Shown: positions 3,897 to 26,889 of the stretch, piece by piece | Layout of the letters: each line of letters opens with the position of its first letter | Numbering within the stretch: position 1 is the stretch's first letter | From: an uncultured Candidatus Saccharibacteria bacterium | GTDB taxonomy: Bacteria; Patescibacteriota; Doudnabacteria; UBA920 | NCBI GenBank assembly: GCA_964490395.1 | Contig: CAZBAS010000001.1 | Coordinates: forward strand, 19,815-83,814 | Reading direction: 5' to 3' | DNA length: 64,000 nucleotides | Notes under the pieces: model-generated | Told to the model about the DNA's origin: nothing | The model's database searches: none | The model's input: only the letters and a program-made list of their open reading frames with translations | Program-made: the position numbers and the translations under genes

Positions 3897-4274
3897 ATGA
3901 AGATAACAACATCAACCGGAACGCTCGTACTGCTACTTGCAGTGTCCATTGCGCTTATGCCCACCATTTCAGCCCTGGATAAATTCAATGCAGAGATAGT
4001 TCCCCCCGTAGGGACAGTTGCAGGTATTGCCATTGGAGGCGTTATTGAGCCAACCCCCACAAACACCCTCTATGCAGAATTGCAAAACGAGAAAACTGTC
4101 CTCGACAGCAGAACCAAAGAGCTGGACGCCAAGGAGCGATACCTTAATGCTGCAAATCAGCATAAAACCTACATACTCGAATTCGCCGTTGCTATACTAT
4201 TTTGCTTAGTTTTAATAAATTTCTATTTTGATATACGCAGAACAAAAAAGGAAGTCACACAAATCAATACATGA
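3897..4274 (+). CDS. Small bitopic membrane protein (N-terminal signal/TM, coiled-coil, C-terminal TM).
   Basis: Hydrophobic N- and C-terminal segments. Overlaps the next gene by 4 nt (atga), so it is first in an operon of surface-protein genes. Confidence 0.5.
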   Translation: MKITTSTGTLVLLLAVSIALMPTISALDKFNAEIVPPVGTVAGIAIGGVIEPTPTNTLYAELQNEKTVLDSRTKELDAKERYLNAANQHKTYILEFAVAILFCLVLINFYFDIRRTKKEVTQINT

Positions 4275-5794: not shown

Positions 5795-5798
5795 CCAC

Positions 5799-6761
5799 AT
5801 GAATACACATTATTTAAAATTTTTCTTAGCAACCGCCCTACTTGTTTTTACAGGAACACCCGCTGTATCCAGGGCAGCCAACACCAACATTAGCCTTTCC
5901 AGCCCCCACACCGCAAGCGTTGGTCAGAGCATTCGTATACGCGTACTAGTTTCAAGCGACCAAAGCCTTAACGCGGCACAGGGCACAGTACAATACCCAA
6001 AAGAATTTCTTTCGGTAACGGGCATCGCAACAGGAAAATCAATTATAAAATATTGGCAACAAGAGCCAAATAACGACCCGGGCACCGGCACCATAAGTTT
6101 TACGGGAGGATTGCCAAACCCTGGGTATACAGGCACGGGAGGCACTGTTTTCGACATTACCGCACGAGCGCTTGCTGAAGGAAAAGCAACGGTTGTGTTT
6201 GGAGAAAACACTCAAATTCTAGCAAATGATGGCAACGGTAGCGTGCTCGACACCAGTAAACAAGGCGCGACCATACAAATTACAAAAGCCACTACACCCG
6301 ACCAGGAAACAACACCACCAGCCGAACCCGCAAAAGATACAACACCCCCTACCGACCTAGAACTTCTCATAGGGCACGATGGAAATTTATTTAACGGGGA
6401 CTGGTTCGCGGTCTTTCAAGCAACCGACACTGAAAGTGGCATCGACCACTATGAAATAGCAGAGACCTCACAAAAAACGCCATACCCTGTTGACAATGAG
6501 TGGATAAAAGCAACAAGCCCGTACCGCCTACAAGAGCAAGTTAAGAATACTAAAATATTTTTTAAGGCTGTAGACAAAGCAGGAAACCAGTCCATAATTA
6601 GCCACGATCACATTGTAAAGCCACCCCTTTTGCAAATGATTACTACCCAAACCGATTGGAGATTTCTTGTAATTCTGGCTATCCTCCTCTTACTCGCCGT
6701 CGTACTACCCATATTTGTCTACAACAGAAAAAAACAACAAGCGGGCACTGTACAAAAGTAG
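5799..6761 (+). CDS. Cohesin-like domain protein with a C-terminal TM anchor.
   Basis: Signal peptide, then a ~140-aa region with cohesin-like strand pattern (GQSIRIRVLVSS...GTVQYPKEFLSVTGI...GTVFDITARALAEGKATVVFGE). Ends with the hydrophobic stretch LVILAILLLLAVVLPIFVY plus a basic tail. Immediately follows the dockerin gene. Confidence 0.55.
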   Translation: MNTHYLKFFLATALLVFTGTPAVSRAANTNISLSSPHTASVGQSIRIRVLVSSDQSLNAAQGTVQYPKEFLSVTGIATGKSIIKYWQQEPNNDPGTGTISFTGGLPNPGYTGTGGTVFDITARALAEGKATVVFGENTQILANDGNGSVLDTSKQGATIQITKATTPDQETTPPAEPAKDTTPPTDLELLIGHDGNLFNGDWFAVFQATDTESGIDHYEIAETSQKTPYPVDNEWIKATSPYRLQEQVKNTKIFFKAVDKAGNQSIISHDHIVKPPLLQMITTQTDWRFLVILAILLLLAVVLPIFVYNRKKQQAGTVQK

Positions 6762-6827
6762 AAAAATGTGATATTATTATTTCATAAAATATTTTTTGTC
6801 AGTTAAGAAATAAAAAGTAAACGTGTT

Positions 6828-7955
6828 ATGGCAAACCGACTAGCCTTCTACTTGAAAAAGAAGTTTAAAAATACAACCAGCAAAGCTCTTGTCGCCACAC
6901 TAGTGCTCAGCACAATTCTTTTTGGTGCCAATACAGCCAATGCAGCTCAAATTACTTCATTCTCAGATACGCTCACAAGGCTCAAAGCAAGCACGGCAGC
7001 AGACCACACCATATTCTTGGTCAGTCCTAGTGGTATTGCAGCAGGCCAAAGCATGACACTTACTTTTGGAGCAGCCTTTACTACAAGCTCAATAGTTCTT
7101 GCAGATATCGACTTTGCTACGGGAAACAGTGGTACTTGTACGAGTGCCACCTATACTGAGCAAACCCTAGCAGCTTCCCCTTCTGGTGCTACTTGGGGTG
7201 TTACCTTTTCAAGCTCAGTGTTAACCCTCACCTCAGGAACAGGCACCTCAACGGCTGGTAACTGCATGCGCTTCAGAATAGGGACAAACGCTGTAACTGG
7301 CAGCTCTGGTACCCATCAAATCACAAATGGTACAGCTGGCGCCACAACCGCAACGGTAGTAGCGAACATAAACTCAAGCACCGATACGGGTACACTGTTT
7401 ATTCCAATCATCACCAACGACCAAGTAACTATTAGCGCTACGGTTGACCCGACTATTTCTTTTAGCATAAACAACACCTCTGTTAGTTTCGGTTCTCTTT
7501 CTTCATCTACAGGCCGCTGGGCTACTACCGGTGGTGGCGCAAACGCCTCAGCTGCAACAGACCCTACCGCGGCCAACACTGCTCATACCTTAACTATAGG
7601 AACAAACGCCACCAGTGGATATACAGTTACCTACAACGGAGCCTTGCTTACAAGCGGTGCAAATACTATAGCAGCGGCTACAATCACTGGGGATAGCGAC
7701 GGAACACAAAACTCAAACCAATTTGGGCTCTGCGGTAAGGGCACCTCCGGTAGTCCAACAGTTGCCTCTGGCTATGTATGCAGTACCAACAGTGACTACA
7801 ACTTTGTCGCAAACACAACTACCACCCTTGCCAGCGCAACGGCCCCAGCCAGCAGCGACGTAGTAAGCGTAGCGTATTTGGCCAACATCGCGAGCTCGAA
7901 GCAAGCTGGTACATATACCACCACCCTGACCTACGTCGCCACCGGTAATTTCTAA
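6828..7955 (+). CDS. Secreted Thr/Ser-rich beta-sandwich protein with a WxL-like / SCPU-like C-terminal domain.
   Basis: Signal peptide. C-terminal ~170 aa has the pattern VTISATVDPTISFSI..SVSFGSL...HTLTIGTNATSGYTVTY....AGTYTTTLTYVATGNF*. Paralogous to 9062..10156. Confidence 0.5.
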   Translation: MANRLAFYLKKKFKNTTSKALVATLVLSTILFGANTANAAQITSFSDTLTRLKASTAADHTIFLVSPSGIAAGQSMTLTFGAAFTTSSIVLADIDFATGNSGTCTSATYTEQTLAASPSGATWGVTFSSSVLTLTSGTGTSTAGNCMRFRIGTNAVTGSSGTHQITNGTAGATTATVVANINSSTDTGTLFIPIITNDQVTISATVDPTISFSINNTSVSFGSLSSSTGRWATTGGGANASAATDPTAANTAHTLTIGTNATSGYTVTYNGALLTSGANTIAAATITGDSDGTQNSNQFGLCGKGTSGSPTVASGYVCSTNSDYNFVANTTTTLASATAPASSDVVSVAYLANIASSKQAGTYTTTLTYVATGNF

Positions 7956-7968
7956 ACGTTTTACCACC

Positions 7969-8997
7969 TTGTCTAGCATTCGCTTCATATATAAGCTTTT
8001 TACTATCAGCACTCTGTTGCTGATAGTTTTTATTACCTACCCGCAGCACGCCAGGGCAACCACCATTTCACCAGTAAAACTCGAGCTAGCGGCAAACCCT
8101 GGAGAGACAATTCAAGGGTCAATCAAGGTAATAAATGAAACCCAAAGCTCCGAGGTACTCTACACTGCAACATTAAACTTTGAGCCAAAGGGTGATGAAA
8201 GTGGTGAACCAAATTTCGTACCAACCAAAGACGGCCTAGCGGCTTGGGTAAAAACTGATTATTCCATCACCCTGGGACAAAAAGAGCAAAAAAACCTGCC
8301 TTTTATCATCCAAATTCCCATGGGAACTGAACCGGGGGGATATTTTGGGGCCATTTTTACTTCTACAACACCGCCAAAAGAAAATGGTAGCGGTGGGGTA
8401 ATGCTCACAGAACGGGTCGGATCCCTTGTGTTATTGCGTGTAAACGGAGCACTCGCCGATTCCGGAGATATATTAGAATTCGGTACAAAAGATAAAAAGT
8501 TTTGGCATACCACCCTGCCCATTACTTTCTACTACCGATTTCAAAATAGCGGCCTAGATCGCGTTAGACCGCTCGGCGATATTCTCATAAAAAATTGGGT
8601 TGGACGTACCTCAAAAATAGTCCCCGCCAATCCAGAGGGCGGAAACGTGCTACCTAAAAGTATACGCAGGTTTGAATCGAAATGGATTAACCTATGGGGC
8701 AAGGCAAACAAAGAGGATATTGCCCAATTCCCAACCCCGCCAGAACAGGGCTTCTGGAAAAAAGTGTCGTACGAAGCAAAATATTTTGCCTGGGGTCGCT
8801 ACAAAATTCAGCTCAACCTTGCATATGGTTTCACGGAATTCCACTCAACCAGCGCCACCACAACAATTTTTGTCTTCCCGTGGCACCTCACACTCGTAAG
8901 TACACTTGCCGCAATTACATTATTCTTCATACTACGCTTCGCAATACGTAGATACAATCGCTGGATAATAAAAAAGGCAACCAAGAAAACAAAGTAA
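7969..8997 (+). CDS. DUF916/DUF3324-like (CscA-like) cell-surface protein with a C-terminal TM anchor.
   Basis: Signal peptide, ~300-aa extracellular domain (PVKLELAANPGETIQGSIKV...EPGGYFGAIFTSTTPP...), and C-terminal TM plus basic tail (ITLFFILRFAIRRYNRWIIKK). Paralogous to 10161..11123 and 11120..12097. Confidence 0.5.
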   Translation: MSSIRFIYKLFTISTLLLIVFITYPQHARATTISPVKLELAANPGETIQGSIKVINETQSSEVLYTATLNFEPKGDESGEPNFVPTKDGLAAWVKTDYSITLGQKEQKNLPFIIQIPMGTEPGGYFGAIFTSTTPPKENGSGGVMLTERVGSLVLLRVNGALADSGDILEFGTKDKKFWHTTLPITFYYRFQNSGLDRVRPLGDILIKNWVGRTSKIVPANPEGGNVLPKSIRRFESKWINLWGKANKEDIAQFPTPPEQGFWKKVSYEAKYFAWGRYKIQLNLAYGFTEFHSTSATTTIFVFPWHLTLVSTLAAITLFFILRFAIRRYNRWIIKKATKKTK

Positions 8998-9007
8998 CTA
9001 TATAAAT

Positions 9008-9038
9008 AACACCCTTGTCTGAGCTGGGGTGTTTTTTA
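9008..9038 (+). terminator. Rho-independent terminator.
   Basis: Hairpin aacaccc-ttgtctgagctg-gggtgtt followed by a T run. Confidence 0.55.
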
Positions 9039-9061
9039 TATATCCGTGATAAAATGATTAC

Positions 9062-10156
9062 ATGGAACTCGCAAAAAAAATCTTGCTGCTATGCTCTCTT
9101 ATAACGCTTATTTTATACCCCTTTGGCCTGCACGCAGAGACGTTATCAAGCACAAATTATACCGTAGAGAACCCCAGCGTGGATTCAGGCGGTGAAAATA
9201 GCAATTCAACAAATTATAATGAGCGAGAATCCATCGGGGGAAGCAACGACAGCGCTGCGAGTTCAACAAACTATCGAGCATTCCCCGGATTCGTCCAACA
9301 TGCCTACCCAGGCATTCCCGGGCAACCAACACTCGTGAATACTGGTGGGGTACTGTACAACGCCCTAGATTTTATTATTGCTACTGCAGGCAACCAAACT
9401 GACACTACATACGCCATTGCCATATCGAGCGACAACTTTACCACAACCAACTTCATTCAAGCAGACGACACCGTAGGCAGCAGCGCTGTATGGCAATCCT
9501 ATACATCATGGGGCTCAGGCACAGGCCAACGAGTTACAGGGCTCAGCGCGAACACCACATATAAAATTAAAGTCAAAGCGCGCTATGGCTTTGATACCGA
9601 AACTGCTTATTCTATTACCGCCAGCGCTACTACAGGCGGGCCAACCCTCACAGTATCGTTTGCGGGCGTAAACTCAGGCACTACCATATCTGGAGCGACC
9701 ACTACCATTACGAGCGCAAGTAATACTATAAGCTATGGCTCACTAACCCCGAACGTAACAGCGGTAGCAGCTCAAACCATAACGGTAAGTACAAATGCAA
9801 CAGGCGGCTATACTACAACGCTGCAGCAAGACGGCGATCTACGCAACAATGGTGGAGATTCCATAAGTCCCGTATCGGGCAGCAACGCCTCACCCGCAGC
9901 ATGGCCCACAGGCATCACCACTGGGTTTTTTGGATATCACACTACTGACGCCACCCTCTGTACAGGGACCGCGGGAAGATTCACTTCAAATAACACGTAT
10001 GCTGCGGCCACAACCACCCCTTCAGAAATTGCCTGTTCTACCACAACGGTTACAAACGAACAAACGTCATTAGTATATAAAGTGGAAATTGGAACTGGAC
10101 AAGACGCAGGAACATATCAAAACATAGTTACCTACATAACCACTGCGCAATTTTAA
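9062..10156 (+). CDS. Secreted Thr/Ser-rich beta-sandwich protein, paralogue of 6828..7955 (WxL-like / SCPU-like C-terminus).
   Basis: Signal peptide. The C-terminal pattern TLTVSFAGV...ISYGSL...TITVSTNATGGYTTTL....AGTYQNIVTYITTAQF* parallels that of 6828..7955. Confidence 0.5.
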   Translation: MELAKKILLLCSLITLILYPFGLHAETLSSTNYTVENPSVDSGGENSNSTNYNERESIGGSNDSAASSTNYRAFPGFVQHAYPGIPGQPTLVNTGGVLYNALDFIIATAGNQTDTTYAIAISSDNFTTTNFIQADDTVGSSAVWQSYTSWGSGTGQRVTGLSANTTYKIKVKARYGFDTETAYSITASATTGGPTLTVSFAGVNSGTTISGATTTITSASNTISYGSLTPNVTAVAAQTITVSTNATGGYTTTLQQDGDLRNNGGDSISPVSGSNASPAAWPTGITTGFFGYHTTDATLCTGTAGRFTSNNTYAAATTTPSEIACSTTTVTNEQTSLVYKVEIGTGQDAGTYQNIVTYITTAQF

Positions 10157-10160
10157 ACTC

Positions 10161-11123
10161 ATGCATTACTCTTGGCGGGCCCTTATTGTATGGATACTTA
10201 TTATGGCTAGTTTTTTACTGGCCCCTGTTGGATACGCCCAAACAAATGAAGTGGCGCCAGAACTTGAAGTGCAAGGCGTGCGCATAACCCCTTTTATATT
10301 TGAACAATCCGTGCAAAAAGGAGAATCATTCACAGGAGACATTACTCTTACGAACACTACGGCAGCTCCGGTCACGCTTTCATTAGCCATTCGCGACTTC
10401 ATCCCCGCTGGCCGGCACGGCGAAGTCCGATTCCTACCAGCCAACCAAGAAACAGACTCTCATTTTTCCTTATCAAATTGGGTAGAAATACAGAAGCAGC
10501 CAGATTACACGCTTGACCCCGGACAAAGCACGCGTACTACATTTCGCATACATGTCCCAACTGATGCAGATGACGGCACTCACTACGGGGGCATACTCTT
10601 CTCTTTTAGCGAGGGAAAAGCAGAGAACGGCACAACGGTCATTCAAAGCATTGGCGCTATTCTCATTGCAAAAATTGGATATGCCAACGGTAGCGGTACA
10701 GTTGAAACTTTTACCACCCCGCAACACATATACGCCAGCAGCACTGTTCCATTTGTGGCCACTTTTCGTAATACCGGAAATGTGCATTTTAGTCCTAAAG
10801 GTAAAATAGAAATCAAAAATATCTTTGGCAAAGTCGTCGGCCTTGCTTATATAAACGAAAATGCGCAAATTAGCCTTCCTGACACAGTAAGACAATTTGA
10901 AAGTGTTTATAAAGGGAAATTTATGGTGGGAAAATATACTGCCACACTTACCCTTGTTTTCGGAAATCCAAAACTGGAAGCCCAAAAAACGATAGGGTTT
11001 TGGGTGCTGCCATGGAAATCACTTATAAAATTTGGATTATTGAGCATACTTGTATTAGCCCTGCTCATATTCGCAATAATCCGCTATAATACATGGGTTA
11101 TTAAACACGCCCCCCGATCATGA
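10161..11123 (+). CDS. DUF916-like (CscA-like) cell-surface protein with a C-terminal TM anchor (paralogue).
   Basis: Shares VRITPFIFEQSVQKGESFTGDITLTN and DGTHYGGILFSF with the corresponding PVKLELAANPGE... and EPGGYFGAIF segments of 7969..8997. C-terminal TM LSILVLALLIFAIIRY. Confidence 0.5.
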   Translation: MHYSWRALIVWILIMASFLLAPVGYAQTNEVAPELEVQGVRITPFIFEQSVQKGESFTGDITLTNTTAAPVTLSLAIRDFIPAGRHGEVRFLPANQETDSHFSLSNWVEIQKQPDYTLDPGQSTRTTFRIHVPTDADDGTHYGGILFSFSEGKAENGTTVIQSIGAILIAKIGYANGSGTVETFTTPQHIYASSTVPFVATFRNTGNVHFSPKGKIEIKNIFGKVVGLAYINENAQISLPDTVRQFESVYKGKFMVGKYTATLTLVFGNPKLEAQKTIGFWVLPWKSLIKFGLLSILVLALLIFAIIRYNTWVIKHAPRS

Positions 11124-12097
11124 ACCCAGTCTTGCGTTCAGTACTTGTAGTCAGCTTTATTTTTGCCATCATTGCTGGGACACTACCCCGCACTGCCAAC
11201 GCGCTTACTGCCTCCCCTATACGTATAGAGCTAAACTCAGATCCTGGTAAAACAATAACTTCGCAGTTTAAGCTTTACAACGACGGCAAAACAAGCGAGA
11301 CCTACTACGTAATTTTCGAAAACTTTGAAGCCAAAGGAGAAGACGGCAGCCCAACTCTAGTTGCCGGCACAGACGGCCTTGCCCGATGGATGTCCACAAC
11401 GGAGTCTGTCACTATAAACCCAAAAGAGTCAAAAACACTACCCCTCACTGTTACAATACCCAAAGATGCCGAACCCGGCGGGTATTTTGCTGCCATTCTA
11501 GCCTCTACCATTCCACCAACACCTGAAAGCGACCAAAACGTATTACTTGAAGCACAGGTGGGAACCCTTGTTTTATTACAGGTAAACGGAGATTTTAAAC
11601 AAGGAGTAGACATACTAGAGTTTGGAACTACAAGCAAAAAGCACTGGTTTACAGCGCTTCCTATAGAGCTCTATTACCGCTTTCAGAACGCAGGAGACAG
11701 CTGGGTTAAACCCATAGGAGACATTATTGCCAGGAATTGGTTTGGTAAAACAACCAAAGTTATCCCAACAAATGAGGATCGGGGCAACATCCTACCCCGC
11801 AGTATTAGAAAATTTACCACGACATGGTACGGAAAAGATAAAAGCGGCCAAATGCCCAAAGGCTTTTGGAAAAAAGTAGGCTACGAGTGGAACAATTTCG
11901 CTTTTGGGAAATATTCCATGTCCTTAAACTTGGCCTATGGCAACAGTAGCGACCAAGCAGCCAGAGCAACAACAAGTGTGTGGATATTTCCTTGGCATTT
12001 ATTGCTGGCCGGGCTTGTAGCAATTGTGCTAGTATTCGGAATTTCCATCTCGCTCGCCGTTGTTCTGGTCATGAAACTACTAAAACGAAGAAAATAA
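11120..12097 (+). CDS. DUF916-like (CscA-like) cell-surface protein with a C-terminal TM anchor (paralogue).
   Basis: Segments SPIRIELNSDPGKTITSQFKLYN and EPGGYFAAILASTIPP are nearly identical to those of 7969..8997. The start overlaps the previous gene by 4 nt. C-terminal TM plus KRRK tail. Confidence 0.5.
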   Translation: MNPVLRSVLVVSFIFAIIAGTLPRTANALTASPIRIELNSDPGKTITSQFKLYNDGKTSETYYVIFENFEAKGEDGSPTLVAGTDGLARWMSTTESVTINPKESKTLPLTVTIPKDAEPGGYFAAILASTIPPTPESDQNVLLEAQVGTLVLLQVNGDFKQGVDILEFGTTSKKHWFTALPIELYYRFQNAGDSWVKPIGDIIARNWFGKTTKVIPTNEDRGNILPRSIRKFTTTWYGKDKSGQMPKGFWKKVGYEWNNFAFGKYSMSLNLAYGNSSDQAARATTSVWIFPWHLLLAGLVAIVLVFGISISLAVVLVMKLLKRRK

Positions 12098-12114
12098 TCT
12101 CTCACATACATCTA

Positions 12115-12145
12115 AAGCGCCCTCTGTGGGGCGCTTTTGTTTTAA
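12115..12145 (+). terminator. Rho-independent terminator.
   Basis: Hairpin agcgccc-tctgt-ggggcgct followed by tttgtttt. Confidence 0.6.
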
Positions 12146-12483
12146 TAGGAAAATTGGTAGCAACTGTTAAAACAATAATGCTTATTTACTGACGTAGTTA
12201 GTAAATTAAAAGTTACTTTCCACGCAAGCCCAGCTTCACCAACATATACGATCGCAAAAATACACTTTCTAATACTTACGACCACACTTGCTTAAGCGTT
12301 GTCTCAACCATGAAACATAGTAATATGCCTCAGATTTCATACCACACAGCTATTATTGGTTCATGGGTATAATGTAGTTTTTTGTTTTATATAAGCAATA
12401 TTTATGAATAAAACGTATTACCAAGGAATGATTTATATCAAAAACCCTTTTATATTCAAGGAAAAATTTTGAGATGCGCTCTA

Positions 12484-12512
12484 TTGACCTAATGATAAAA
12501 CTGTGATAAAAT
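12484..12512 (+). promoter_or_regulatory. Sigma70-like promoter (TTGACC, 17 nt spacer, TAAAAT) in the long AT-rich leader upstream of the HTH gene and the giant protein gene.
   Basis: ttgacc-taatgataaaactgtga-taaaat read directly. It lies ~210 nt upstream of the 12721 start codon. Confidence 0.4.
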
Positions 12513-16000: not shown

Positions 16001-19000
16001 AAACCTAGCAGCGCTCTCTTCTTCATCCACCGCTGGTGGAGCGTCTGGTACTTCTACCCTCCTAAACTTGTCTCGCACTGGTGTTAATAGTAATACCGCA
16101 CACACTGCGTATGGACTTTATTCTACCGTCACAAACACAAACGTGACCAGCGGCACAAACATTGCTGCTTATCTTTCTGCTAGTGGTGCGACTACTGCAA
16201 ATTACGGCCTAATTGTTGCTGCTGGAAATGTAGGGATAGGAACAACAACACCTAAAGGGCTCCTTGAAATTGACGGATACGCGGGACAAACAATACTAAG
16301 AGACCTAGGAGCCGCAGCAGACGAAGGTGGGTGGTCATTTACCACTTCCGCAACCACCCTCACTCTTGGATCAACAAACGACGCCAACAATGCTGGCGCA
16401 AGCCTTCTTGTCGCAAAACGTGGCACCGGCACAACTATAACAAGCTTATACTCCCCTTCGACTTCTACTAATTTTGGGCTGGGCGACTCAACACCGGCCT
16501 CCCTACTTACTGTAGGCAACGGCGACCTTTTCCAAGTAAACTCATCGGGTGCAATTGCTGCTGCCACTGGAATTACCTCTTCTGGAACAATTAACTTCTC
16601 TACTCTTTCCGCTTCTAGCGCGGTCTATACCGACGGCTCAAAAAACTTAACCTCTACCGCACCAACAAGTGGCGCCATTGGGTATTGGTCTAGGAGCGGC
16701 ACCACTTTGCAACCAGCAACAAGCAATGACGTTGTAGCAATTTCTAGTAACGCTGTTGCTGCGGGCGGAGTTCTCGATATTACATCTTCTGGCACAGTTA
16801 CGAGCGGCAATAACGCAATTAGAATCACTGCAAACTCAGTAACCACTGGGGTAGGCGTTTCCTTGTCTACAACTGGAGTAACTACTGGAACAGCATTAAA
16901 CATTACCGGCCCTAGCACAACAGGTGTAACCACTGGCTTGTCATCTGGCTTCATCAAGGCAACAAGCGACGTTGGATCAGGTGGAACCGGCGGGGTGCTG
17001 GCGTACTTAGCACCAGACTACAGCTCCGCTTCTGCCGCAACTAGTTATGGCCTTGAAATAAATGGAACGGATAGCACAACGGTAAGTAATAACAATTACA
17101 ACCTTTACAGTAATTTGGCTATGAGCGGCGATGCTACGAGTAAACTCGGGGTAGCTATCTACGGCAATGTCAGCTCGAGTAGTACACTAGCTGATACTAC
17201 ATATGGCGGCCTATTTGGCACCTCTGTAAGCGGGGCAATATCCACCGGAAGCAGAAACAACTACGGAATATACGCGCAACCAAACGTCAGCAGCGCTAAC
17301 ACAGGTGGTATTACAAATGTGTACGGTGCCTTCCTAGCACCCGCTTCATCGAACTCTACTACTGGCTCTACAGTAAACGTGTACGGCAGCTATACTACAA
17401 ACCAAGCACTCTTAACAACAGGTGGCACCATAAACAGCTATGGCAACTATATTGCCAATGGGTCGGTAAGCACTACTGGAACTTCGACTCAATACGGTTT
17501 ATATGTGGAATCTCAAACTGGCGCAGATAATAACTACACCGCGGTGTTTGCGGGTGGAAACGTAGGAATAGGAACAACAACGCCTACGGCCTTTCTTCAT
17601 GTCGGCTCTAATGGTGCAGCATCTAACCCTGGACTTAAGCTGAGCGGCTCATGGTTTACCGGTGGCGACTCTACCACGACTAAACCACAGGCTTTAATAG
17701 AAGCGAGTGGGGCAACTTCTTCAGGGTGGTCCACAAGCGGCACTGGCCTTGGTATAAACGCACCGAGTGGTTTTACGGGAAGAATGATAGATGTAAAACT
17801 AAATGGAACCAGCTCCTTTGCCCTTAATGAGGCTGGAGGCATTTCAATCTTGGGCCAAGGAGTTACTAATATTGGGGCGGCCCAAGCCTACTGGTATCAA
17901 CCATCAGGAGCTACTGTATCAATTGGAAACAACGGCGACACTGGGGCAAGTAATTTATTACTACGGGCTGGAGCAAGCGGGTCTTCTGGTGGAAACATCA
18001 CATTTAATATAAACAACTCTAATACCGGAATATGGAACTCCGCAGGTTTTGGTATTGGTACCGGCACACCAATAGACCCACTCTCTATTAGCACCGCAAT
18101 AAACGCATCTGCGACACACGCACTGTTTAATCTTTCAAACACCGCTCTTTCCAGTGGTTCGGCTAATGGTACGTACATAGGCGCAAACCCTGCGGCTTTT
18201 ACTGGCAACTTCTTCGACTTTCAAGTTGCGAGTTCTAGTGTAGCTAAACTCACCAGCGCTGGTGCATTAACCGTTTCATCTTGTACTGGTTGTGGTAGTG
18301 GAGCCACTACATTCGACGCAATTGGAGATCCCGCTGGTAATGGCGCTATAAACATGGGTACCACTGTTCAAACCCTAGACTGGGGAGCCACCACCACAAC
18401 CGACAACTTAAGCATTACTTCCTCTGGTACTGGCATAACCTCTGGTTCTGTATTAAAAGTCACCTCGGCCACTACTGGCGCAGTTTCAAATGGACTTATT
18501 CAATTCACCGCAAGTGGTGCATATACATCAACTGGCGGGTTATTGAGTGTAACCGGCAACTCTACCGCAACTGGTACACTCGCAAAGTTTTCTGCTACCG
18601 GTTTAACTACTGGTACAGGGCTAACAATTGCCGGTGGTACGGCAATGACAACTGGCACAGTACTAGGCGTGAGCAGTGCAACCTACAACCACGCCAACGG
18701 TGAAACTGGAAATATGGCTTCACTAATCTTCTCAGACGCAACCACAACCGCCGGCGCCGTAACCAGCACCACCAACGGATTAAACATCGCCTCAACCATA
18801 GCAGCAACAACCAGCACCAGTGGTACAAAAACTGTGAACGCAATTAACATTGCCTCCCCTACTCTCACTTCTTGTACTGGTGGTGCTAGTTGTGTCTGGA
18901 ACGGTGTACAAATTACTGCTCCAGCGACTACTGCTAGTTTTACTTCTACTGCACTCAAAGTAGTTGCGAACTCTTTAACCACCGACACAGTGGCTAGTAT

Positions 19001-22000
19001 TTCTGCAACAGGTCAAACAAGTGGTATCGGGCTCTCCATAACTGGTGGTGGCGCCAACCTTACTGCTTCCGGTAAACTCATAGACCTGCAAATGGGTGCA
19101 GCCACCGTGGGTGCAGGATTAAATATTCTTAGCTCGGGTGTATATACTGGCGCGGGCTTAGTACAGCTCACTGCTAACTCAGCCACCAGTGGTGTAATCG
19201 ATAGTATTTCTGGAACAGGATTAACTTCTGGATCAGCAGTTAGAGTAACTGGGTCTGGTGCAACCATGACTACTGGTGGTGAACTCATTGACCTTGTCCT
19301 TGGCGCCAATACTGTAGGGGCGGGAATGACCATCACCAGCACGGGTGCATATACAGGTACCGGTGCAGCTGATGGACTAATTAACATAGTCGCCAACTCA
19401 CTTTCGAGCGGATTTGGTTCCCAATATTCCTTCACTGGCATGACCAGTGGTACCGGCATAAAAATAACCGGTGGCGGCGCAAACTTAACTGCTTCTGGTA
19501 AACTGATAGACCTTCAAATGGGCGCAGCTACTGTTGGTGCGGGTTTAAACATTGCCAGTTCTGGTGTATATACGGGCGCTGGCCTCGTACAACTAACTGC
19601 GAACAGTGCAACCTCTGGTGTAATAGATAGAATCTCCGGAACAGGATTAACTTCTGGATCAGCAGTTAGAGTAACTGGGTCTGGCGCAACCATGACCACT
19701 GGCGGAGAATTGATCGATTTAGTGCTTGGTGCCAATACTGTTGGTGCAGGCCTTACGGTTACCAGCACTGGTACGTATACGGGTAGCGGCGCTGCTGATG
19801 GATTAATTAACGTCGTAGCAAACTCGCTCACCACAGGACTCGGTTCACAATACTCATTCACTGGTATGACAACGGGCACCGGAATAAAGATGACTGGCGG
19901 TACCGCAATGACCACCGGTGGGCTAATACAAATCGGAAACGGTACATATAACCATGTCAACGGTGAAACGGGTAGTATTGCTAAAATTCTTGTTACGGAC
20001 GCCACCACAACCGCCGGTGCGGTTACGAGCACCACTAACGGATTAAACATTGCCTCAACCATAGCAGCAACAACCAGCACAAGTGGAACGAAAACAATAA
20101 ATGCTATCAACATAGCCTCCCCTACTCTTACCTCTTGTGCGGGTGGTGCAAGTTGTGTGTGGAATGGTATGCAAATTACCGCTCCGGCAACCACTGCAAG
20201 TTTTACTTCTACCGCGCTTAAGGTGGTGGCGGATTCGCTGACCACCGATACCGGCGTGAGCATTTCTGCTGCCGCATTAACTACGGGCAACGCCTTAAGC
20301 ATTACCGCTGGTGGCGCAACCGCACTAACTAGTGGTGCAGGACTCAAAGTAACCGGACCAAGCGGGGCTGCTGCAATAGCGAACGGCTTAGTACAAATTA
20401 CTGCAGCTGGTGCGTATACAGGCACAGGCGGACTGTTAAATGTAACCTCTGCGGCCTCTACAGCAGGAACACTTGTTAACTTTACCAACAACACAGCCAG
20501 CTTTACCGGTACGGCTGTTAACATCTCGACCAGCGGCATTACAAGCGGCTCAGCAATGCAAATTACAGGAGGAAGCTCTATGGCTGCGGGTGGACAATTA
20601 CTTGGTCTAAGCATTGGCACGGCAGGTGCAGGTACTGCCCTTAATATTGTTGCCAATGGTGGAACATATACCGGAACCGGGCTTCTAGCATTTAATAGTA
20701 ACAGCTTAACATCCGGAACCATGATGTCGGTAGCGGCAAATGGCTCCGGCCAAACCAGCGCAAAATATATCGACATTGCCCAGACAGGCGTTACCACAGG
20801 GTTTACAGGAAACCTAATAAACCTTAGCTCTACCTCTACAACTGGCGCGGCAACGTTTATAAACCTAACAGCAAACTCTTCTACGGTTGGGGTTGGCCAG
20901 GCTATTTCTATGACCGGCCTAACAACCGGCTCTGCCCTAACCATTACCGGACCAAGCTCGACCGGAGTTACGGGGAGCGGCATCTTAAAAGTTACTGCTG
21001 ACGTAGGGTCTGGTGGCACCCAAGGACAATTGGTCAGTTTTTCTCCGGACTACAGCGCGGGCACCGCGAGTACGGGCTACGGTCAAACCATACTCGGAAC
21101 CGACTCAACATCTACGGCAAACTCAGACAACAACCTATATTCCAGCCTAGCTTTAACAGGAAATGCCGCAAAAACAGGATACGCATTTTATGGCACAGTG
21201 ACCTCTAACTCAACCACTGCTGACACAACCTATGGCGCAAACTTTGACACCAGCATAACCGGAGCAATTTCCACTGGAACCCGCAACACCATTGGTGTCA
21301 GAAGCGCCCCCGCCACTTCAGGCGCAAACACAGGTGGAACCACACAACTGTTTGGTGGAAACTTTGCCCCAAGCAGTACTGGTTCTACCACAGGCGCTAC
21401 AGTAAATGTATTCGGCGCCTATGTAAGCAATACCGCCACCCTTACCACTGCCGGAACCATTAACAGTTACGGGCTGTATGTAGACTCTGGAACCACAAGC
21501 ACCACCGGAACCTCTACTGCATATGGCGCCTATATTCTAGCCCCGACAGGCGCAGACACAAACACGGGACTACTCATTAACACTGCAAACGCAGCAAGCA
21601 TTGGTCAAGTAATAAAGGCATCGACAAGCCAGACTGCTGACCTACTCCAATTCCAAAACTCTTCAGGCACTGTGTTAATGTCCCCAGACTTTGCCAACAG
21701 CAGTTCTTTGTGGAACTTCTACAACACAAGCGGTACAAAAATGGCAGTCATGGGATACGATAACGCCAACAATGCAGCCTTCTTCCAGTCCATAGGCATT
21801 GATGGAGTACTCCGTGCCCGCGACGCTATTAATGGAAGAGATTACGCCAAAATTAATCTGAATTACACTTCGGGTTATATATCTCTTAGTACCAACACCG
21901 GTGCGGATGCAGTAGAACGCATGCGCATAGATGCAACTGGTGCGGTTGGTATTGGCGCAAGCATGACCGCACCAAAACAACCCAACGGATTACAAATGGC

Positions 22001-23726
22001 ATACAGCACCACCGCCAATCAAAAATGGGCATTTATTAGTGGTGAAAGCGGCGCGTATTTAAACGGAAACGCCTACTACGACGGCACCTGGAGATATCTC
22101 GACGGCGCCAACGGCGCATCTATGGTTAACGCCAATAGCGTGCTTAATGCGATCCTGTTCTACACAACCGCAACAACCGGCAGCACCGGAGGAGCCATTA
22201 GCAACTGGACAGAAAAAATGCGTATTGAAGGTGGTGGAAACGTGGACATCGGCACCAGCACATCAAAAGGACTTTTGACTGTTGCCCAAACCGACGCCGC
22301 GAACGACGAAGGTATTTACTTAGATACCGAGGAATCAACTACCACGCAAACGGTGTTTGCTATAGAGAGTGACGCAACCTCTGCTGATACAGTGAAATTT
22401 AAAGTTACGGCGGACGGCGAAACGAGCGCACTTCTTAATGGCCAAGGCGGAAACAACTTGTGCCAAAACGGAGTATTCGCTGGTGGTGTTGGAAAAATTG
22501 GTGATTGTACTTCGGACCGCAGATTAAAAACCAATATTGTTGACCTTGATGGTGGGGCGCTAGAAAAAATCATGCAGGTAAAACCTCGTGTATTCGACTG
22601 GATTAACGGCGCCGGACAACACCAGTCAGGGTTTATAGCCCAAGAAGTACAGGCTGTCATACCAGAGCTGTACAGGGGCGAAACTGCCGATGGCTACTTA
22701 CGGTTCTCCAAAGACCTGCTAGTCCCCTATCTCACCAAAGCGCTACAAGAGTTAAACCAGGTTTCCATTAAGACAAATGCCGACGGAACGATAAACCGAG
22801 ACTCGTTCGTGTTTGAAATGCCCGAAAACCAAGCCAATACGGCACAAATTACAGGGACAGGCACACAGGCCGTGGCCAGTACCGGATTTGTCATAAATCA
22901 AAAAGGAAGTGGCAATATTCTTCAACTCCAAAAAGATGGCATGGACAACTTCTTGGTAGCAAACGACGGTACAGTACACATTCACACAGACCTCGCAAGC
23001 GGTACTGTACTTGAAATAACCAATGCAAACACTTCCCTCTTTACTATTAACACCCAAGGCAATGCGGCACTCGCAGGTACATTGGTTGTAAAGAAAGATG
23101 TTGCAGTACTTGGAAGAATCCTCGGATCTACAGCCATAGTAGCCAAAAATACCAGCAACGAGACTATTCACCAAGGCGACCTACTTATGCTTACTGGTGC
23201 AACCGCAGAGCCAATGCTTGGAGACCAGCCAACCCTTACCGTTGCAAAAGCAGTAGCGGGTACCAACACTACCATTGTTGGCATAGCAGACCGCAACCTT
23301 TCTGACTTCAACATAAACCCTGACTCCCCTGTTGCCGATGACCCAACTACCATAAAACCTGGAGAATATGTAAGCATTGTTATTACGGGCACATACAAAA
23401 AAGTCTTTGTGAACGGCAGCGTTTCACTGGGAGACAAGCTAACCGCATCCATAATCCCAGGAAAAGCAGAAAAGCTCACAGCCAACACACCAGGGCAAGT
23501 GTTTGGTATTTCCCTCGACAACACCCCGGACACAACTGGTTCCATACGCGTTATGCTCTTATCCACTTTTCAACAAGTAACCCAAATAGTTCAGCAAGTA
23601 CCAGTTAGCCAAGCCGCCCCACCAGCACCAAACCAGAACAATAACAACACTCCCCCCCCTGATAACGGTGGAACAACAAGCGATCCTGTGACCCCTCCCG
23701 CAGAAACCCCATCACCTACAGAATAG
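13044..23726 (+). CDS. Giant (3560 aa) secreted Thr/Gly/Ser/Ala-rich repetitive surface protein. It has a phage-tail-fibre-like beta-helical repeat region and a peptidase S74 / intramolecular chaperone autoprocessing domain near the C-terminus.
   Basis: Putative GTG start with a classic signal peptide (KRTKLYALLALAGVALNWMPLFAPPAQA). Globular N-terminal domain. Recurring GNVGIGTTTP / SGTVGFGTTAP motifs. Long internal repeats. The segment CTSDRRLKTNIVDL...PRVFDWIN.....GFIAQEVQAVIPELY....YLRFSKDLLVPYLTKALQELNQ matches the S74 chaperone domain consensus. Pro-rich C-terminal tail. Confidence 0.7.
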   Translation: MAKHNLKTILNFRKRTKLYALLALAGVALNWMPLFAPPAQATVPKYINFQGKLTKVSDGTNVTNGSYAFEFKLYDASTSGTLLWTETYDQPSGACTKLAVTSGVFNAKLGSCASLASIDFTGGSIYLSVNFAPTGVSYDGEMSPRKQLVASPFALVANSVSGDGPINTVNSSATALTVAKSGSNYGLQVDTSTASAATGLKITSAAAASGIALSAISSGTNESITLDAKGTGSVSLGATSTGDILLGGGSGSTGCTVTNSTGAFACTAGGSFTTLGLSGAITGATGITSSGTINFSTLSASSAVYTDGSKNLTSTAPTSGAIGYWSRSGTTLQPTTSNDAISITGNSGDIATLTSSATEASNKTLNISQTGATSGTDYGAYISNTGAATNNVGLYTTTSGATNNYAAIFDSGTVGFGTTAPTAGKLHILAANTTQPAIAVQQPSANNNYSILLASTNNFGSNNLDLNYQDGNGIRMISNLNMNISAGSALNLTSGTASTYALPSNTASALRFTDGTNSYHTIDTRTTNSTSSAHTFATTAPTIASSSTSAYLLTTFTPGTQTYTGTTNTTSTGATAPLSVLFNQPTIAGNGTRTITETSNTVINGPTIASSSSGTETITSAYGLNILSGSALNGTGGAVTNGVGLSVNAPTGATNNYAALFNGGNVGIGNTAPTETLDVTGNAKIRGTLKIRSASNTGNLSILDAGGGVATIDNTGNSILAINGGSISTNFVTGNVGIGISNVTTPNAALQIATNGAASTPGVRLDGTWYAAGTSTTNKPQLLVEPTGTTSTTWSGAGTGIGANAASGFTGNLLDLQTNNASKFSVASDGTVITASTIFGGNDIYAGSSSYLAFSSRSKISSPADSNLLLTNAAANAFNLLQFGGTSSSFPALKRSTTILQARLADDSGYTSFDAGNFLLSGTNINTAGTLTNVAYKNAANTFTANNIFQPTVTTGTGATAGVQIAANSLTTGNGLDVSSTSLTTGNLAALSSSSTAGGASGTSTLLNLSRTGVNSNTAHTAYGLYSTVTNTNVTSGTNIAAYLSASGATTANYGLIVAAGNVGIGTTTPKGLLEIDGYAGQTILRDLGAAADEGGWSFTTSATTLTLGSTNDANNAGASLLVAKRGTGTTITSLYSPSTSTNFGLGDSTPASLLTVGNGDLFQVNSSGAIAAATGITSSGTINFSTLSASSAVYTDGSKNLTSTAPTSGAIGYWSRSGTTLQPATSNDVVAISSNAVAAGGVLDITSSGTVTSGNNAIRITANSVTTGVGVSLSTTGVTTGTALNITGPSTTGVTTGLSSGFIKATSDVGSGGTGGVLAYLAPDYSSASAATSYGLEINGTDSTTVSNNNYNLYSNLAMSGDATSKLGVAIYGNVSSSSTLADTTYGGLFGTSVSGAISTGSRNNYGIYAQPNVSSANTGGITNVYGAFLAPASSNSTTGSTVNVYGSYTTNQALLTTGGTINSYGNYIANGSVSTTGTSTQYGLYVESQTGADNNYTAVFAGGNVGIGTTTPTAFLHVGSNGAASNPGLKLSGSWFTGGDSTTTKPQALIEASGATSSGWSTSGTGLGINAPSGFTGRMIDVKLNGTSSFALNEAGGISILGQGVTNIGAAQAYWYQPSGATVSIGNNGDTGASNLLLRAGASGSSGGNITFNINNSNTGIWNSAGFGIGTGTPIDPLSISTAINASATHALFNLSNTALSSGSANGTYIGANPAAFTGNFFDFQVASSSVAKLTSAGALTVSSCTGCGSGATTFDAIGDPAGNGAINMGTTVQTLDWGATTTTDNLSITSSGTGITSGSVLKVTSATTGAVSNGLIQFTASGAYTSTGGLLSVTGNSTATGTLAKFSATGLTTGTGLTIAGGTAMTTGTVLGVSSATYNHANGETGNMASLIFSDATTTAGAVTSTTNGLNIASTIAATTSTSGTKTVNAINIASPTLTSCTGGASCVWNGVQITAPATTASFTSTALKVVANSLTTDTVASISATGQTSGIGLSITGGGANLTASGKLIDLQMGAATVGAGLNILSSGVYTGAGLVQLTANSATSGVIDSISGTGLTSGSAVRVTGSGATMTTGGELIDLVLGANTVGAGMTITSTGAYTGTGAADGLINIVANSLSSGFGSQYSFTGMTSGTGIKITGGGANLTASGKLIDLQMGAATVGAGLNIASSGVYTGAGLVQLTANSATSGVIDRISGTGLTSGSAVRVTGSGATMTTGGELIDLVLGANTVGAGLTVTSTGTYTGSGAADGLINVVANSLTTGLGSQYSFTGMTTGTGIKMTGGTAMTTGGLIQIGNGTYNHVNGETGSIAKILVTDATTTAGAVTSTTNGLNIASTIAATTSTSGTKTINAINIASPTLTSCAGGASCVWNGMQITAPATTASFTSTALKVVADSLTTDTGVSISAAALTTGNALSITAGGATALTSGAGLKVTGPSGAAAIANGLVQITAAGAYTGTGGLLNVTSAASTAGTLVNFTNNTASFTGTAVNISTSGITSGSAMQITGGSSMAAGGQLLGLSIGTAGAGTALNIVANGGTYTGTGLLAFNSNSLTSGTMMSVAANGSGQTSAKYIDIAQTGVTTGFTGNLINLSSTSTTGAATFINLTANSSTVGVGQAISMTGLTTGSALTITGPSSTGVTGSGILKVTADVGSGGTQGQLVSFSPDYSAGTASTGYGQTILGTDSTSTANSDNNLYSSLALTGNAAKTGYAFYGTVTSNSTTADTTYGANFDTSITGAISTGTRNTIGVRSAPATSGANTGGTTQLFGGNFAPSSTGSTTGATVNVFGAYVSNTATLTTAGTINSYGLYVDSGTTSTTGTSTAYGAYILAPTGADTNTGLLINTANAASIGQVIKASTSQTADLLQFQNSSGTVLMSPDFANSSSLWNFYNTSGTKMAVMGYDNANNAAFFQSIGIDGVLRARDAINGRDYAKINLNYTSGYISLSTNTGADAVERMRIDATGAVGIGASMTAPKQPNGLQMAYSTTANQKWAFISGESGAYLNGNAYYDGTWRYLDGANGASMVNANSVLNAILFYTTATTGSTGGAISNWTEKMRIEGGGNVDIGTSTSKGLLTVAQTDAANDEGIYLDTEESTTTQTVFAIESDATSADTVKFKVTADGETSALLNGQGGNNLCQNGVFAGGVGKIGDCTSDRRLKTNIVDLDGGALEKIMQVKPRVFDWINGAGQHQSGFIAQEVQAVIPELYRGETADGYLRFSKDLLVPYLTKALQELNQVSIKTNADGTINRDSFVFEMPENQANTAQITGTGTQAVASTGFVINQKGSGNILQLQKDGMDNFLVANDGTVHIHTDLASGTVLEITNANTSLFTINTQGNAALAGTLVVKKDVAVLGRILGSTAIVAKNTSNETIHQGDLLMLTGATAEPMLGDQPTLTVAKAVAGTNTTIVGIADRNLSDFNINPDSPVADDPTTIKPGEYVSIVITGTYKKVFVNGSVSLGDKLTASIIPGKAEKLTANTPGQVFGISLDNTPDTTGSIRVMLLSTFQQVTQIVQQVPVSQAAPPAPNQNNNNTPPPDNGGTTSDPVTPPAETPSPTE

Positions 23727-23735
23727 AGCACATAT

Positions 23736-26876: not shown

Positions 26877-26889
26877 TTTAGTCCGAAGT

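Follow-up and report, generated by a model that had tools for sequence, protein, structure and literature searches.

In a 64-kb stretch of DNA (contig CAZBAS010000001.1; hereafter the window, meaning all of its 64,000 nucleotides), ten genes at positions 3897-23726 stand between the rpmH/rnpA block and dnaA. We consider it probable that these genes, called the island below, encode a chaperone-assisted surface filament module of the Pam/WxL type, together with a giant fibre-like protein that has a Peptidase_S74 (S74) domain, a helix-turn-helix (HTH) regulator and a dockerin/cohesin pair. Bacteria of the Candidate Phyla Radiation (CPR) are thought to depend on attachment to host cells, and their surface machinery is mostly unannotated. 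The map of open reading frames (ORFs) and the domain scans place the island at these positions and find both flanking blocks intact and about 20 kb apart, as had been stated in a preliminary description of this DNA. That description counted ten surface genes and one further HTH gene; the count that stands is ten in all, nine for exported or membrane proteins and one for the HTH protein (lengths in amino acids, aa):

3897-4274, plus strand: g1, a small membrane protein of 125 aa
4271-5794, plus strand: g2, an exported dockerin protein of 507 aa
5799-6761, plus strand: g3, 320 aa, cohesin-like, with a C-terminal transmembrane (TM) anchor
6828-7955, plus strand: g4, 375 aa, likely a Pam-type pilin
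7969-8997, plus strand: g5, 342 aa, membrane-anchored, with a signal peptide and a C-terminal TM helix
9062-10156, plus strand: g6, a second pilin-like protein of 364 aa
10161-11123, plus strand: g7, 320 aa, WxLIP-like, membrane-anchored
11120-12097, plus strand: g8, 325 aa, a membrane-anchored paralogue of g5
12721-12924, plus strand: the HTH gene, for a DNA-binding protein of 67 aa of HTH_17/MerR/excisionase type
13044-23726, plus strand: the giant gene, for a fibre-like protein of 3560 aa

By hydropathy, all nine non-HTH proteins (9 of 9) have a hydrophobic N-terminus, and g1, g3, g5, g7 and g8 have besides a C-terminal membrane helix. The idea of a dedicated cell-surface locus is borne out. 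The motif LPx[TSA]G is absent from all island proteins, and none of them has a paralogue elsewhere in the window.

The main system of comparison is the Pam pilus, which is specific to CPR bacteria, for which a 2026 preprint proposes assembly by donor-strand exchange, and for which two filaments of Ca. Mycosynbacter amalyticus were solved by cryo-electron microscopy (cryo-EM) (10.64898/2026.03.03.709456). In these filaments the two-domain pilins PamA and PamB, which have paired cysteines, are joined by donor-strand exchange via an internal linker strand, with the donated linker and its binding site being the most conserved parts of Pam pilins (10.64898/2026.03.03.709456). In abundance, PamA and PamB rank with the foremost proteins of M. 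amalyticus; the accessions of its Pam proteins A, B, E, T, C, D and R run from WP_260763277 to WP_260763289. The operon also encodes PamE, the tip pilin PamT, the chaperones PamC and PamD, which are PapD-like and have a C-terminal membrane helix, and the RbmA-like anchor PamR, while a gene for a tail-fibre-like protein and ATP synthase genes are its conserved neighbours (10.64898/2026.03.03.709456). The emphasis of that preprint is on Saccharimonadia and Microgenomatia, and it makes no mention of WxL or DUF916 (10.64898/2026.03.03.709456).

The evidence for a pilus of this type comes in the first place from g4. Against the NCBIfam model NF058581, CPR_Pam_pilin_C (the Pam pilus models are those of NCBIfam release 20), g4 scores 56.2 bits with the cut-off at 55 (E 4e-15), and the same model is matched by 71 of the 71 aligned g4 homologues (best E 8.9e-25), 43 of which also match PamT. 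The g4 family comprises 627 matches in a word-indexed search and 2827 cluster representatives at E<=1e-3 in an exhaustive profile search. The protein is composed of a signal peptide, an N-terminal beta-sandwich (about residues 40-195), a linker strand (about 196-225) and a C-terminal Ig-like domain, with two pairs of cysteines, and its AlphaFold2 (AF2) model, with a pLDDT of 92.6, is all-beta and has two domains (about 40-195 and 205-375). The most conserved segments of g4 are the linker (about 196-225) and the last strand (361-375), with peaks at about 201-205 and at 365; such conservation of the linker fits a donated strand better than a spacer. On these matches, g4 is likely a Pam-type pilin that would act as the shaft subunit.

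The second pilin-like protein, g6, has three parts, which are a PamT-like N-terminus, an Fn3 domain at about 111-178 (from a PDB match) and a Pam-pilin-type C-terminal domain at 218-364, and, like g4, it has paired cysteines. Its scores against PamT (38.1 bits, cut-off 240; residues 8-83) and Pam_pilin_C (22.2 bits) of NCBIfam are both below the cut-offs, and its C-terminal domain is homologous to that of g4 in both HHalign against the g4 profile (87.6%, E 3.5e-6) and BLASTP (E 9e-7). With this acceptor-only architecture, g6 is a candidate for a tip or adaptor subunit. It was also observed that the mature N-terminus of g6 (window 9140-9310, residues about 27-83), the same segment that matches the PamT model, contains the motif S-(S/T)-N-Y three times, at a spacing of about 13-22 residues, namely in SSTNYTVENPSVDSGG, NSTNYNERESIGG and SSTNYRAFPGF. 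In the preliminary description the island was said to contain Csc/WxL-like pairs. This is apt for g7, which is WxLIP-like, and not for g4 and g6, where there is no Pfam WxL match and no Trp-x-Leu motif and where it is the Pam pilin C-terminal model that is matched instead.

Two further observations concern pilin domains in other proteins (comparison loci fetched from the databases are labelled L, and proteins matched in the profile searches P). Giants of 1100-3974 aa were seen that end in a Pam-pilin C-terminal domain or in a whole pilin (the 3974 aa protein of L168, and P0367, P0372, P0397, P0303 and P0349); this is the architecture expected of a pilus-mounted tip adhesin, and suggests that very large adhesins may be mountable as tips. 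In P0376 (3077 aa) there are nine tandem pilin N-terminal domains and in P0394 (776 aa) that domain occurs at the N-terminus only, as in g2, so that the pilin N-terminal domain is a mobile module outside true pilins.

[quoted passage not shown] The g7 protein matches Pfam WxLIP_PGBD/DUF916 with 34.4 bits (cut-off 27.3), and its family profile matches EfmWxLIP1 (9i25_C) with an E of 7.8e-6. Its AF2 model (pLDDT 82.8) shows two beta-sandwiches and a C-terminal TM helix at 285-316; DUF3324 is undetected by Pfam in g7, the second Ig-like domain being present in the model. With Foldseek the best matches of the model are 9i25_C, which is the WxLIP of E. faecium in complex with a long WxL protein, and 9i1y (E about 2e-10); next come the chaperones CfaA, YadV, CsuC, Caf1M and EcpB of chaperone-usher systems (TM-scores of 0.42-0.59, target-normalised) and then RbmA, which superposes on the g7 model more poorly than WxLIP or the chaperones do. 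By BLASTP, g5 is paralogous to g8 (45%) and to g7 (27%); g8 gives weak Pfam matches to fn3_5 and WxLIP_PGBD, and g5 has positional orthologues in all the core cassettes that are described below. We regard g7 as a candidate pilin chaperone, and g5 and g8 as candidates for WxLIP/PapD-like chaperones or anchors.

We propose a model in which the island works as two transcription units. Unit 1 would consist of g1-g8 and end at the hairpin at 12114-12137, and unit 2 would consist of the HTH regulator and the giant gene. In the model, g4 would be exported by Sec as a two-domain pilin and g6 as a second pilin-like protein that has a C-terminal domain of the acceptor type only. Each pilin's C-terminal Ig-like domain, which is incomplete, would be held by g5, g7 and g8 until it is handed over and completed by the linker strand of the next g4, i.e. 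by donor-strand exchange; what results would be a linear, thin filament on the outside of a cell without an outer membrane. In addition, g2 would dock via its dockerin on the membrane-anchored cohesin protein g3, and the giant protein would be trimeric-fibre-like, with the Peptidase_S74 domain folding the fibre and then cleaving itself off. The Pam pili of Ca. Mycosynbacter amalyticus offer an analogy that makes plausible the role in host attachment which had been suggested for the locus.

The likenesses to the Pam system are several: a CPR host, Sec-exported components, pilins of beta-sandwich-linker-Ig architecture with paired cysteines, several proteins of two Ig domains with a C-terminal membrane helix as in PamC/PamD, and a linked tail-fibre-like protein. 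The differences are that there are here two pilin-type and three chaperone-type genes, whereas Pam has three pilins, a tip pilin, two chaperones and an anchor; that g6 is three-part while PamT is a single domain; that no distinct PamR was found here and no ATP synthase, CorB or MFS genes near the island; that the island adds a dockerin/cohesin pair and has the HTH protein and giant fibre as fixed cassette parts; and that the host is Doudnabacteria-like and the position lies between rpmH and dnaA. With the chaperone-usher pili (Pap/Fim, CFA/I, Csu, Caf1), to whose chaperones the g7 model aligns, the proposed filament shares the logic of acceptor-only, donor-plus-acceptor and donor-only subunits. 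Unlike in those pili, there is no usher, no outer membrane and no detectable sequence similarity, the chaperones are membrane-anchored, and there is an extra pilin N-terminal domain, with the donor being an internal linker rather than an N-terminal extension (10.64898/2026.03.03.709456).

Several points weigh against our model. The score of g4 exceeds the Pam pilin cut-off only narrowly (56.2 to 55) and g6 stays under both cut-offs, and no NCBIfam model matches g5, g7 or g8. The fold searches with g4, made in a PDB set without a Pam pilus structure, gave only generic Ig-like and Gram-positive-pilin matches, and neither a Pam nor a WxL chain came up in PDB sequence searches with g4, g6, g3 and the g4 family profile. 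ATP synthase genes, which are conserved pam neighbours (10.64898/2026.03.03.709456), were not seen in the ORFs of the window that were scanned, and no separate PamR-like terminator was identified in the island; the role of PamR might be taken by one of g5/g8 or by the g2-g3 pair. Finally, the interior of the giant gene is repetitive, and no second assembly spans its middle.

The model should also be weighed against a non-filamentous WxL/Csc surface complex, in which g5, g7 and g8 would anchor g4 and g6 as monomeric adhesins or polysaccharide binders, with the dockerin and cohesin giving a cellulosome-like display. It is true that g7 passes WxLIP_PGBD and has the E. faecium WxLIP as best structural match, that a cluster whose definition is a single WxLIP with a pair of WxL proteins resembles g4/g6 plus the WxLIP-like set, and that the AF2-predicted insertion of a DUF916 strand into the WxL partner is the same contact logic without polymerisation (PMC10599100); g2, moreover, carries the carbohydrate-associated CHB_HEX_C together with a dockerin. 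[quoted passage not shown] By contrast, g4 and g6 have neither a WxL domain nor Trp-x-Leu and match the model of pilins whose filaments were solved by cryo-EM, the linker is the most conserved part of g4, no LPxTG (CscD-type) protein is present, DUF3324 is undetected, and the host is a CPR bacterium, not a member of Bacillota. To our knowledge, WxL clusters do not form filaments. We thus hold a complex of monomers to be unlikely.

A bolder form of our filament model, which we put forward tentatively since we think it more apt to fail than to hold, is that the Pam pilus and the Bacillota WxL/WxLIP clusters are one superfamily and that the filament has g6 as tip, g4 as shaft and g2, with its pilin N-terminal domain only, as a base on g3 that replaces PamR. 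The idea of a superfamily arises because the membrane-anchored 'chaperones' are homologues of WxLIP in both sequence and structure.

The genes g1-g3 are accessory to the cassette. By hydropathy, g1 starts with a signal or TM segment and has a TM helix at its C-terminus; it has no Pfam or NCBIfam match, and its orthologues are found in L083 (99%) and L081 (49%) only. The g2 protein is composed of a Pam-pilin-N-terminal-domain-like part (about 30-160), CHB_HEX_C/Fn3_assoc (206-274), a Gly run, a further region and a type I dockerin at 456-501, the last being matched by Pfam Dockerin_1 over residues 456-501 with 32.1 bits against a cut-off of 22.9. By HHalign, residues 3-160 match the g4 family profile with a probability of 96.6% (E 5.5e-10), and the pilin C-terminal domain is lacking. 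For residues 140-215 HHalign against the g4 profile is not significant (E 0.44), so that a donor strand in g2 is suggested by domain logic alone. The g3 protein has a signal peptide, a cohesin-like part (about 38-150), an OmpL47-type/Ig-like part (206-267; NCBIfam barrel_OmpL47 27.9 bits, below the cut-off) and a C-terminal TM anchor, and bears no relation to the WxLIP profile. No Pfam Cohesin match is given by g3 even at E<=10, and its L081 orthologue (50% identical over the full length) reaches 24.4 versus 24.1. Of the dockerin/cohesin pair noticed earlier, the dockerin of g2 is thus confirmed by Pfam, and the cohesin of g3 is marginal, being recognised via the L081 orthologue only.

As g3 couples the cohesin-like part with a membrane anchor, g2 probably docks on g3 at the cell surface. 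The arrangement is like that of cohesin-dockerin systems, which comprise cellulosomes and non-cellulosomal bacterial and archaeal pairs, in that a type I dockerin on g2 is encoded beside a membrane-anchored cohesin-like protein, and unlike it in that g2 carries no glycoside hydrolase and starts with a pilin-like domain, there is no multi-cohesin scaffoldin and the cohesin is marginal. In the literature search nothing specific was found on dockerin/cohesin in CPR or Doudnabacteria. A variant locus, L168 (1-8011, 10001-15831), independently groups a pilin of Pam-like type and a WxLIP-like protein with one dockerin protein and two that are cohesin-like, with an integrase adjoining and a neighbouring 3974 aa protein that ends in the pilin C-terminal domain. 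This combination, together with the pilin N-terminal domain of g2, supports a link between dockerin/cohesin and the pilus.

Between and behind the two proposed units, the following features are seen:

12114-12137, plus strand: a hairpin like an intrinsic terminator, with a stem of 10 pairs (6 G-C) and a T run, 17 nt past the g8 stop
12138-12720, plus strand: an AT-rich non-coding spacer of about 580 nt, with no credible ORF, no Rfam match and no tRNA
12484-12512, plus strand: a promoter-like site, TTGACC-17-TAAAAT, with TG before it
23740-23761, plus strand: a terminator-like hairpin, AGCCCTT-ATTT-AAGGGTT and then TTTT, directly after the giant gene

From the hairpin after g8, the promoter-like site before the HTH gene and the hairpin after the giant gene, the block is divided into two transcription units, with the spacer at 12138-12720 being the probable control region for the HTH gene and the giant gene. 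The HTH protein matches Pfam HTH_17 (44.6 bits) and MerR_1 as well as TIGR01764, an excisionase-family model. Its orthologues in L081, L083, L084, L085, L086, L167 and L169 are 60-64% identical (100% in L083), and across the cassettes the HTH gene always lies directly upstream of the giant gene.

The giant protein of 3560 aa is rich in Thr, Gly, Ala and Ser and begins with a signal or anchor and a highly conserved domain of about 200-340 aa; between cassettes this N-terminal part shows 54-88% identity, and it bears no relation to the pilin profile. Peptidase_S74 (PF13884), an intramolecular chaperone domain, is matched with 58.6 bits at aa 3157-3209 (nt about 22512-22670), with the motif SDRRLKTNI at aa 3157 and about 350 aa after the domain, and it is only in this S74 region that PHROG tail-fibre and receptor-binding families match. 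The gene contains internal repeats of 200-300 nt at 78-81% identity. With the S74 domain and the long repetitive body, the giant protein is indeed fibre-like, as it had been called. An exact-protein look-up gave no record for it or for P0121, and a cluster look-up yielded no names.

In having S74 with an SDRRLKxNI motif near the C-terminal end of a long repetitive body, the giant protein is like the S74 fibres of phages and of endosialidase type, and it should be considered whether the island is a degraded prophage or mobile element with a tail-fibre gene and an excisionase. To this the PHROG matches of the S74 region, the TIGR01764 match of the HTH protein and the integrase beside the variant cassette of L168 would lend themselves. 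Yet the giant gene is chromosomal, stands in a cellular cassette, encodes a signal peptide and about 350 aa past S74, and is accompanied by no other phage genes, and in many CPR genomes the HTH gene and the giant gene are paired as a constant element of a cassette on the chromosome. In the island, antisense ORFs included, the searches gave no integrase or transposase, in agreement with what had been noted before, and there is no capsid, terminase or other phage gene on either strand. There is no flanking tRNA, the island borders share no repeat of at least 10 nt, and the GC content at third codon positions, which is 0.39-0.44 in nine of the ten island genes and 0.57 in the 67 aa HTH gene, is within the range of the rest of the window and like that of the flanks. 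An origin as a prophage or other mobile element is hence scarcely credible.

The repetitive giant gene also raises the question of an assembly artefact, in which two loci would have been joined inside this gene to give a false linkage of rpmH and dnaA. The assemblies of L081, L083 and L084 do break inside the giant gene, which has the repeats of 200-300 nt. On the other hand, the ORF is uninterrupted over 3560 codons, with the conserved N-terminal and S74 domains at the expected places, and its length is near those of cassette giants elsewhere (3347 and 3623 aa). Both ends of the gene are confirmed by independent assemblies. At the left, the junction of rpmH to g1 is reproduced in L083 and L081, where the order is PBP-paaX-jag-yidC-rpmH, then g1-g8, then the start of the giant gene; at the right, the junction of the giant-gene 3' end to dnaA is reproduced in L170, which is 100% identical over 5816 nt (window 22031-27846) and spans the 3' end of the giant gene, dnaA, dnaN and recF. 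Moreover, at four-fold degenerate sites the skew of the left flank and g1-g8 is opposite to that of the right arm, as in an origin-spanning contig. A misjoin inside the giant gene is unlikely, and we regard an artefact of this kind as a very improbable account of the locus.

Part of the island recurs elsewhere. A core of seven genes, g4, g5, g6, g7, g8, the HTH gene and the giant gene, is found in the same order beside rpmH in L081 and L083 and in five other distinct CPR contexts at other chromosomal sites, three of them beside rpoBC:

L081 and L083: core beside rpmH, as in the window
L084: core downstream of rpoB-rpoC, in the same direction
L167: core directly after rpoC, in the same direction, without a g8 orthologue
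730 kb JGI contig: core downstream of rpoB-rpoC, in the same direction, known from the gene list only
L085/L086: core beside type IV pilin-like genes
L169: core beside another giant gene

Positional orthologues of every core gene are present in L081, L083, L084, L085/86 and L169, and of all but g8 in L167. A linked giant tail-fibre-like protein occurs in seven of the eight related loci fetched. The genes g1-g3 and the position at rpmH are confined to three assemblies, the window, L083 and L081. Since the same core sits at other loci in other CPR genomes, the origin-adjacent position is lineage-specific and not a property of the system. The preliminary description had named the occurrence of these genes at an origin-distal locus in related genomes as evidence against it, and the other loci bear this out in part; its reading is thus partly supported.

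The genes and spacers that flank the island are as follows:

1000-1503, minus strand: a PaaX-like gene, in the left flank
1565-2071, minus strand: jag/R3H (Pfam R3H)
2081-2782, minus strand: yidC (Pfam 60KD_IMP)
2849-3127, minus strand: yidD (Pfam YidD)
3143-3487, minus strand: rnpA (Pfam Ribonuclease_P)
3580-3717, minus strand: rpmH, an ORF of 45 aa with tblastn matches of 50-77% in about 110 loci
23727-24110, no strand: the spacer of 384 nt between the giant gene and dnaA, in which the dnaA promoter region lies and perhaps also half of oriC
24111-25481, plus strand: dnaA (Pfam)
25482-25769, plus strand: the dnaA-dnaN spacer, with box-like sites and an AT-rich stretch
25770-26876, plus strand: dnaN (Pfam)
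26964-28055, plus strand: recF (Pfam), with a YbaK-like gene further on, also on the plus strand

The survey of this junction covered 166 fetched loci, 160 of which are DnaA loci and about 151 of these have enough upstream sequence. In 106 of the about 151, rpmH is divergent within 1.5 kb of dnaA, in 45 it is not, and in none of them (0 of about 151) do island genes lie upstream of dnaA. It had been proposed to ask whether rpmH and dnaA are adjacent in related genomes, and they are in the Doudnabacteria L002 and L003, where jag-yidC-yidD-(rnpA)-rpmH lies about 175-215 nt from dnaA. The window flanks are collinear with those of L002 and L003, which means that in one lineage a gap that is normally short either received the block or retained it. 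We propose that an old, widely conserved CPR cassette would have come into the short gap between rpmH and dnaA in an ancestor of the Doudnabacteria-like lineage. The locus closest by DnaA (68%) is L001, which has signal peptidase II, a Mg-chelatase-like ATPase, a solute-binding protein and T4SS-pilin-like proteins upstream, and a metagenome scan with DnaA found no close relative, the best being 59%. It was observed that in L001 four T4SS_pilin-domain genes (6416-9153) lie directly upstream of dnaA, on the dnaA strand, in the place of rpmH, so that a different surface-gene set fills the same gap. As another observation on L001, the DnaN of the window is 38% identical to that of this locus versus 68% and 67% for the flanking DnaA and RecF, which is an unusually uneven divergence.

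Within the lineage, the island and its flanks differ in their divergence. Between the window and L081, the flanking housekeeping proteins are 47-77% identical (Jag 48%, RnpA 47%, YidD 49%), while the island proteins are 62-88% identical (g4 71%, g6 80%, giant N-terminus 88%); this greater conservation of the island suggests strong constraint or exchange of the cassette between lineages. Between the window and L083, the flanks are 99.6-100% identical, and the housekeeping genes and most of the island are at 98-100% nucleotide identity, with the exception of 9.4-11.4 kb (the end of g6, all of g7 and the start of g8), a block with sharp borders in which identity falls to about 82%; for g4 the value is 94.5%, and past its first 850 nt the giant gene is unalignable. 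This mosaic looks like allelic replacement by recombination in surface-exposed genes. As to whether island content varies between strains, then, the gene content is stable in this comparison, and it is the alleles in g6-g8 and the giant gene that are mosaic.

The location of the origin was analysed by skew. Over the window the cumulative GC skew is lowest at about 24-25 kb, and the skew was recomputed at four-fold degenerate sites because the island encodes proteins rich in Thr, Ala, Ser and Gly; the whole-sequence GC skew of the island, which such coding biases, was dropped as stand-alone evidence. At the four-fold sites GC skew is confounded by a coding-strand effect, being the sum of that effect (about -0.14) and of a replication effect (about +0.14 at the right and -0.2 to -0.3 at the left), whereas AT skew there is independent of strand. 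The AT skew is -0.11 and -0.14 for plus and minus genes right of the origin, +0.28 in the left flank, mostly +0.15 to +0.35 in g1-g8 with values near zero in g4 and g7, and about 0 in the giant gene. Since it is +0.15 in dnaA and -0.16 in dnaN, the switch is located at dnaA/dnaN. The GC-skew check that had been suggested for the origin position, with its minimum at about 24-25 kb and the change of sign at four-fold sites at dnaA/dnaN, therefore shows that the island adjoins the origin.

The perfect DnaA box TTATCCACA is found nowhere in the 64-kb window, so that the origin call comes mainly from skew, and the relaxed box TTWTNCACA shows no enrichment in the window. Box-like 9-mers, with one mismatch each, lie upstream of dnaA at 23828, 23928 and 23996. 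In the dnaA-dnaN spacer there is the box-like TTACCCACA at 25703, together with ATATCCACC, TAATCCACC and TTATCCGCT, which were picked out by eye; at about 25725-25769 the spacer is rich in AT. As a separate observation, four DnaA-box-like 9-mers in one orientation (GGTGGATAG, AGTGGATAA, TGTGGAAAA and TGTGGGTAA) occur within 100 nt at 42700-42797, in the spacer that lies upstream of a gene with a RhuM/Fic domain (42878-43891), at a distance of 18.5 kb from dnaA on its right. They are denser than the box-like sites beside dnaA, and this cluster might serve to titrate DnaA or be regulated by it. Scans of the window for Rfam families and for tRNAs found none.

The island thus lies 0.4-2 kb from the origin, on its left side, and as its genes are read in the direction of the origin, they meet the leftward fork head-on. 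It might be supposed that this position is adaptive, by higher copy number during replication, which is the high gene dosage of the preliminary description, or by faster evolution through head-on conflict, and it is consistent with such a benefit that the position is kept between the window and L081 despite the 47-77% identity of the flanking housekeeping proteins, that the island is mosaic between strains whose flanks are 99.6-100% identical, and that the block is head-on. The comparisons, however, point the other way: the cassette stands at other loci in other CPR genomes, three of them downstream of rpoB-rpoC; L002 and L003 have nothing between rpmH and dnaA, and L001 has unrelated genes. 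Furthermore, a dosage effect needs overlapping rounds of replication, for which CPR growth is assumed to be too slow; the sharp borders of the block at about 82% look like recombination rather than local mutagenesis; and about 30% of the genes right of the origin are likewise head-on. Head-on orientation is also not what a placement that simply optimises expression would predict, and together with the other locations of the cassette it weakens the dosage idea. We consider an adaptive position distinctly improbable.

Two other features of the window concern surface proteins. A PilB/T2SSE-type ATPase of type IV pilus machinery is encoded at 35113-36762, which indicates a second filament system in the organism, and an exported protein of 1546 aa with GH39, Big_7 and F5/8 type C domains is encoded at 52679-57319.

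A system of this kind was already described in 2026; what is new here is the host lineage, the seven-gene cassette, the WxLIP link, the dockerin/cohesin addition and the chromosomal position. The family of Pam-type pili extends to a Doudnabacteria-like lineage, and by their source names the g4-family matches also include Paceibacterota, Kerfeldbacteria, Falkowbacteria, Nomurabacteria and Wolfebacteria. A compact cassette of seven genes is defined, with two pilins and three WxLIP-like proteins alongside an HTH protein and the giant fibre with its S74 domain; that the gene order is fixed speaks for joint action of this fibre and the pilus. For genome organisation the meaning is modest. The junction of rpmH and dnaA is one of the most conserved gene junctions in bacteria, and it took in 20 kb of head-on surface genes with both flanks undisturbed, an arrangement that has outlasted deep divergence among members of the lineage; other lineages have this cassette at other places, and so position alone is not to be read as functional. 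The tie to the WxL-interacting proteins of Gram-positive bacteria gives a testable annotation for hundreds of 'hypothetical' CPR proteins, and, if the reading as one superfamily is true, findings would transfer between the systems, for example on whether WxL proteins assemble by strand complementation.

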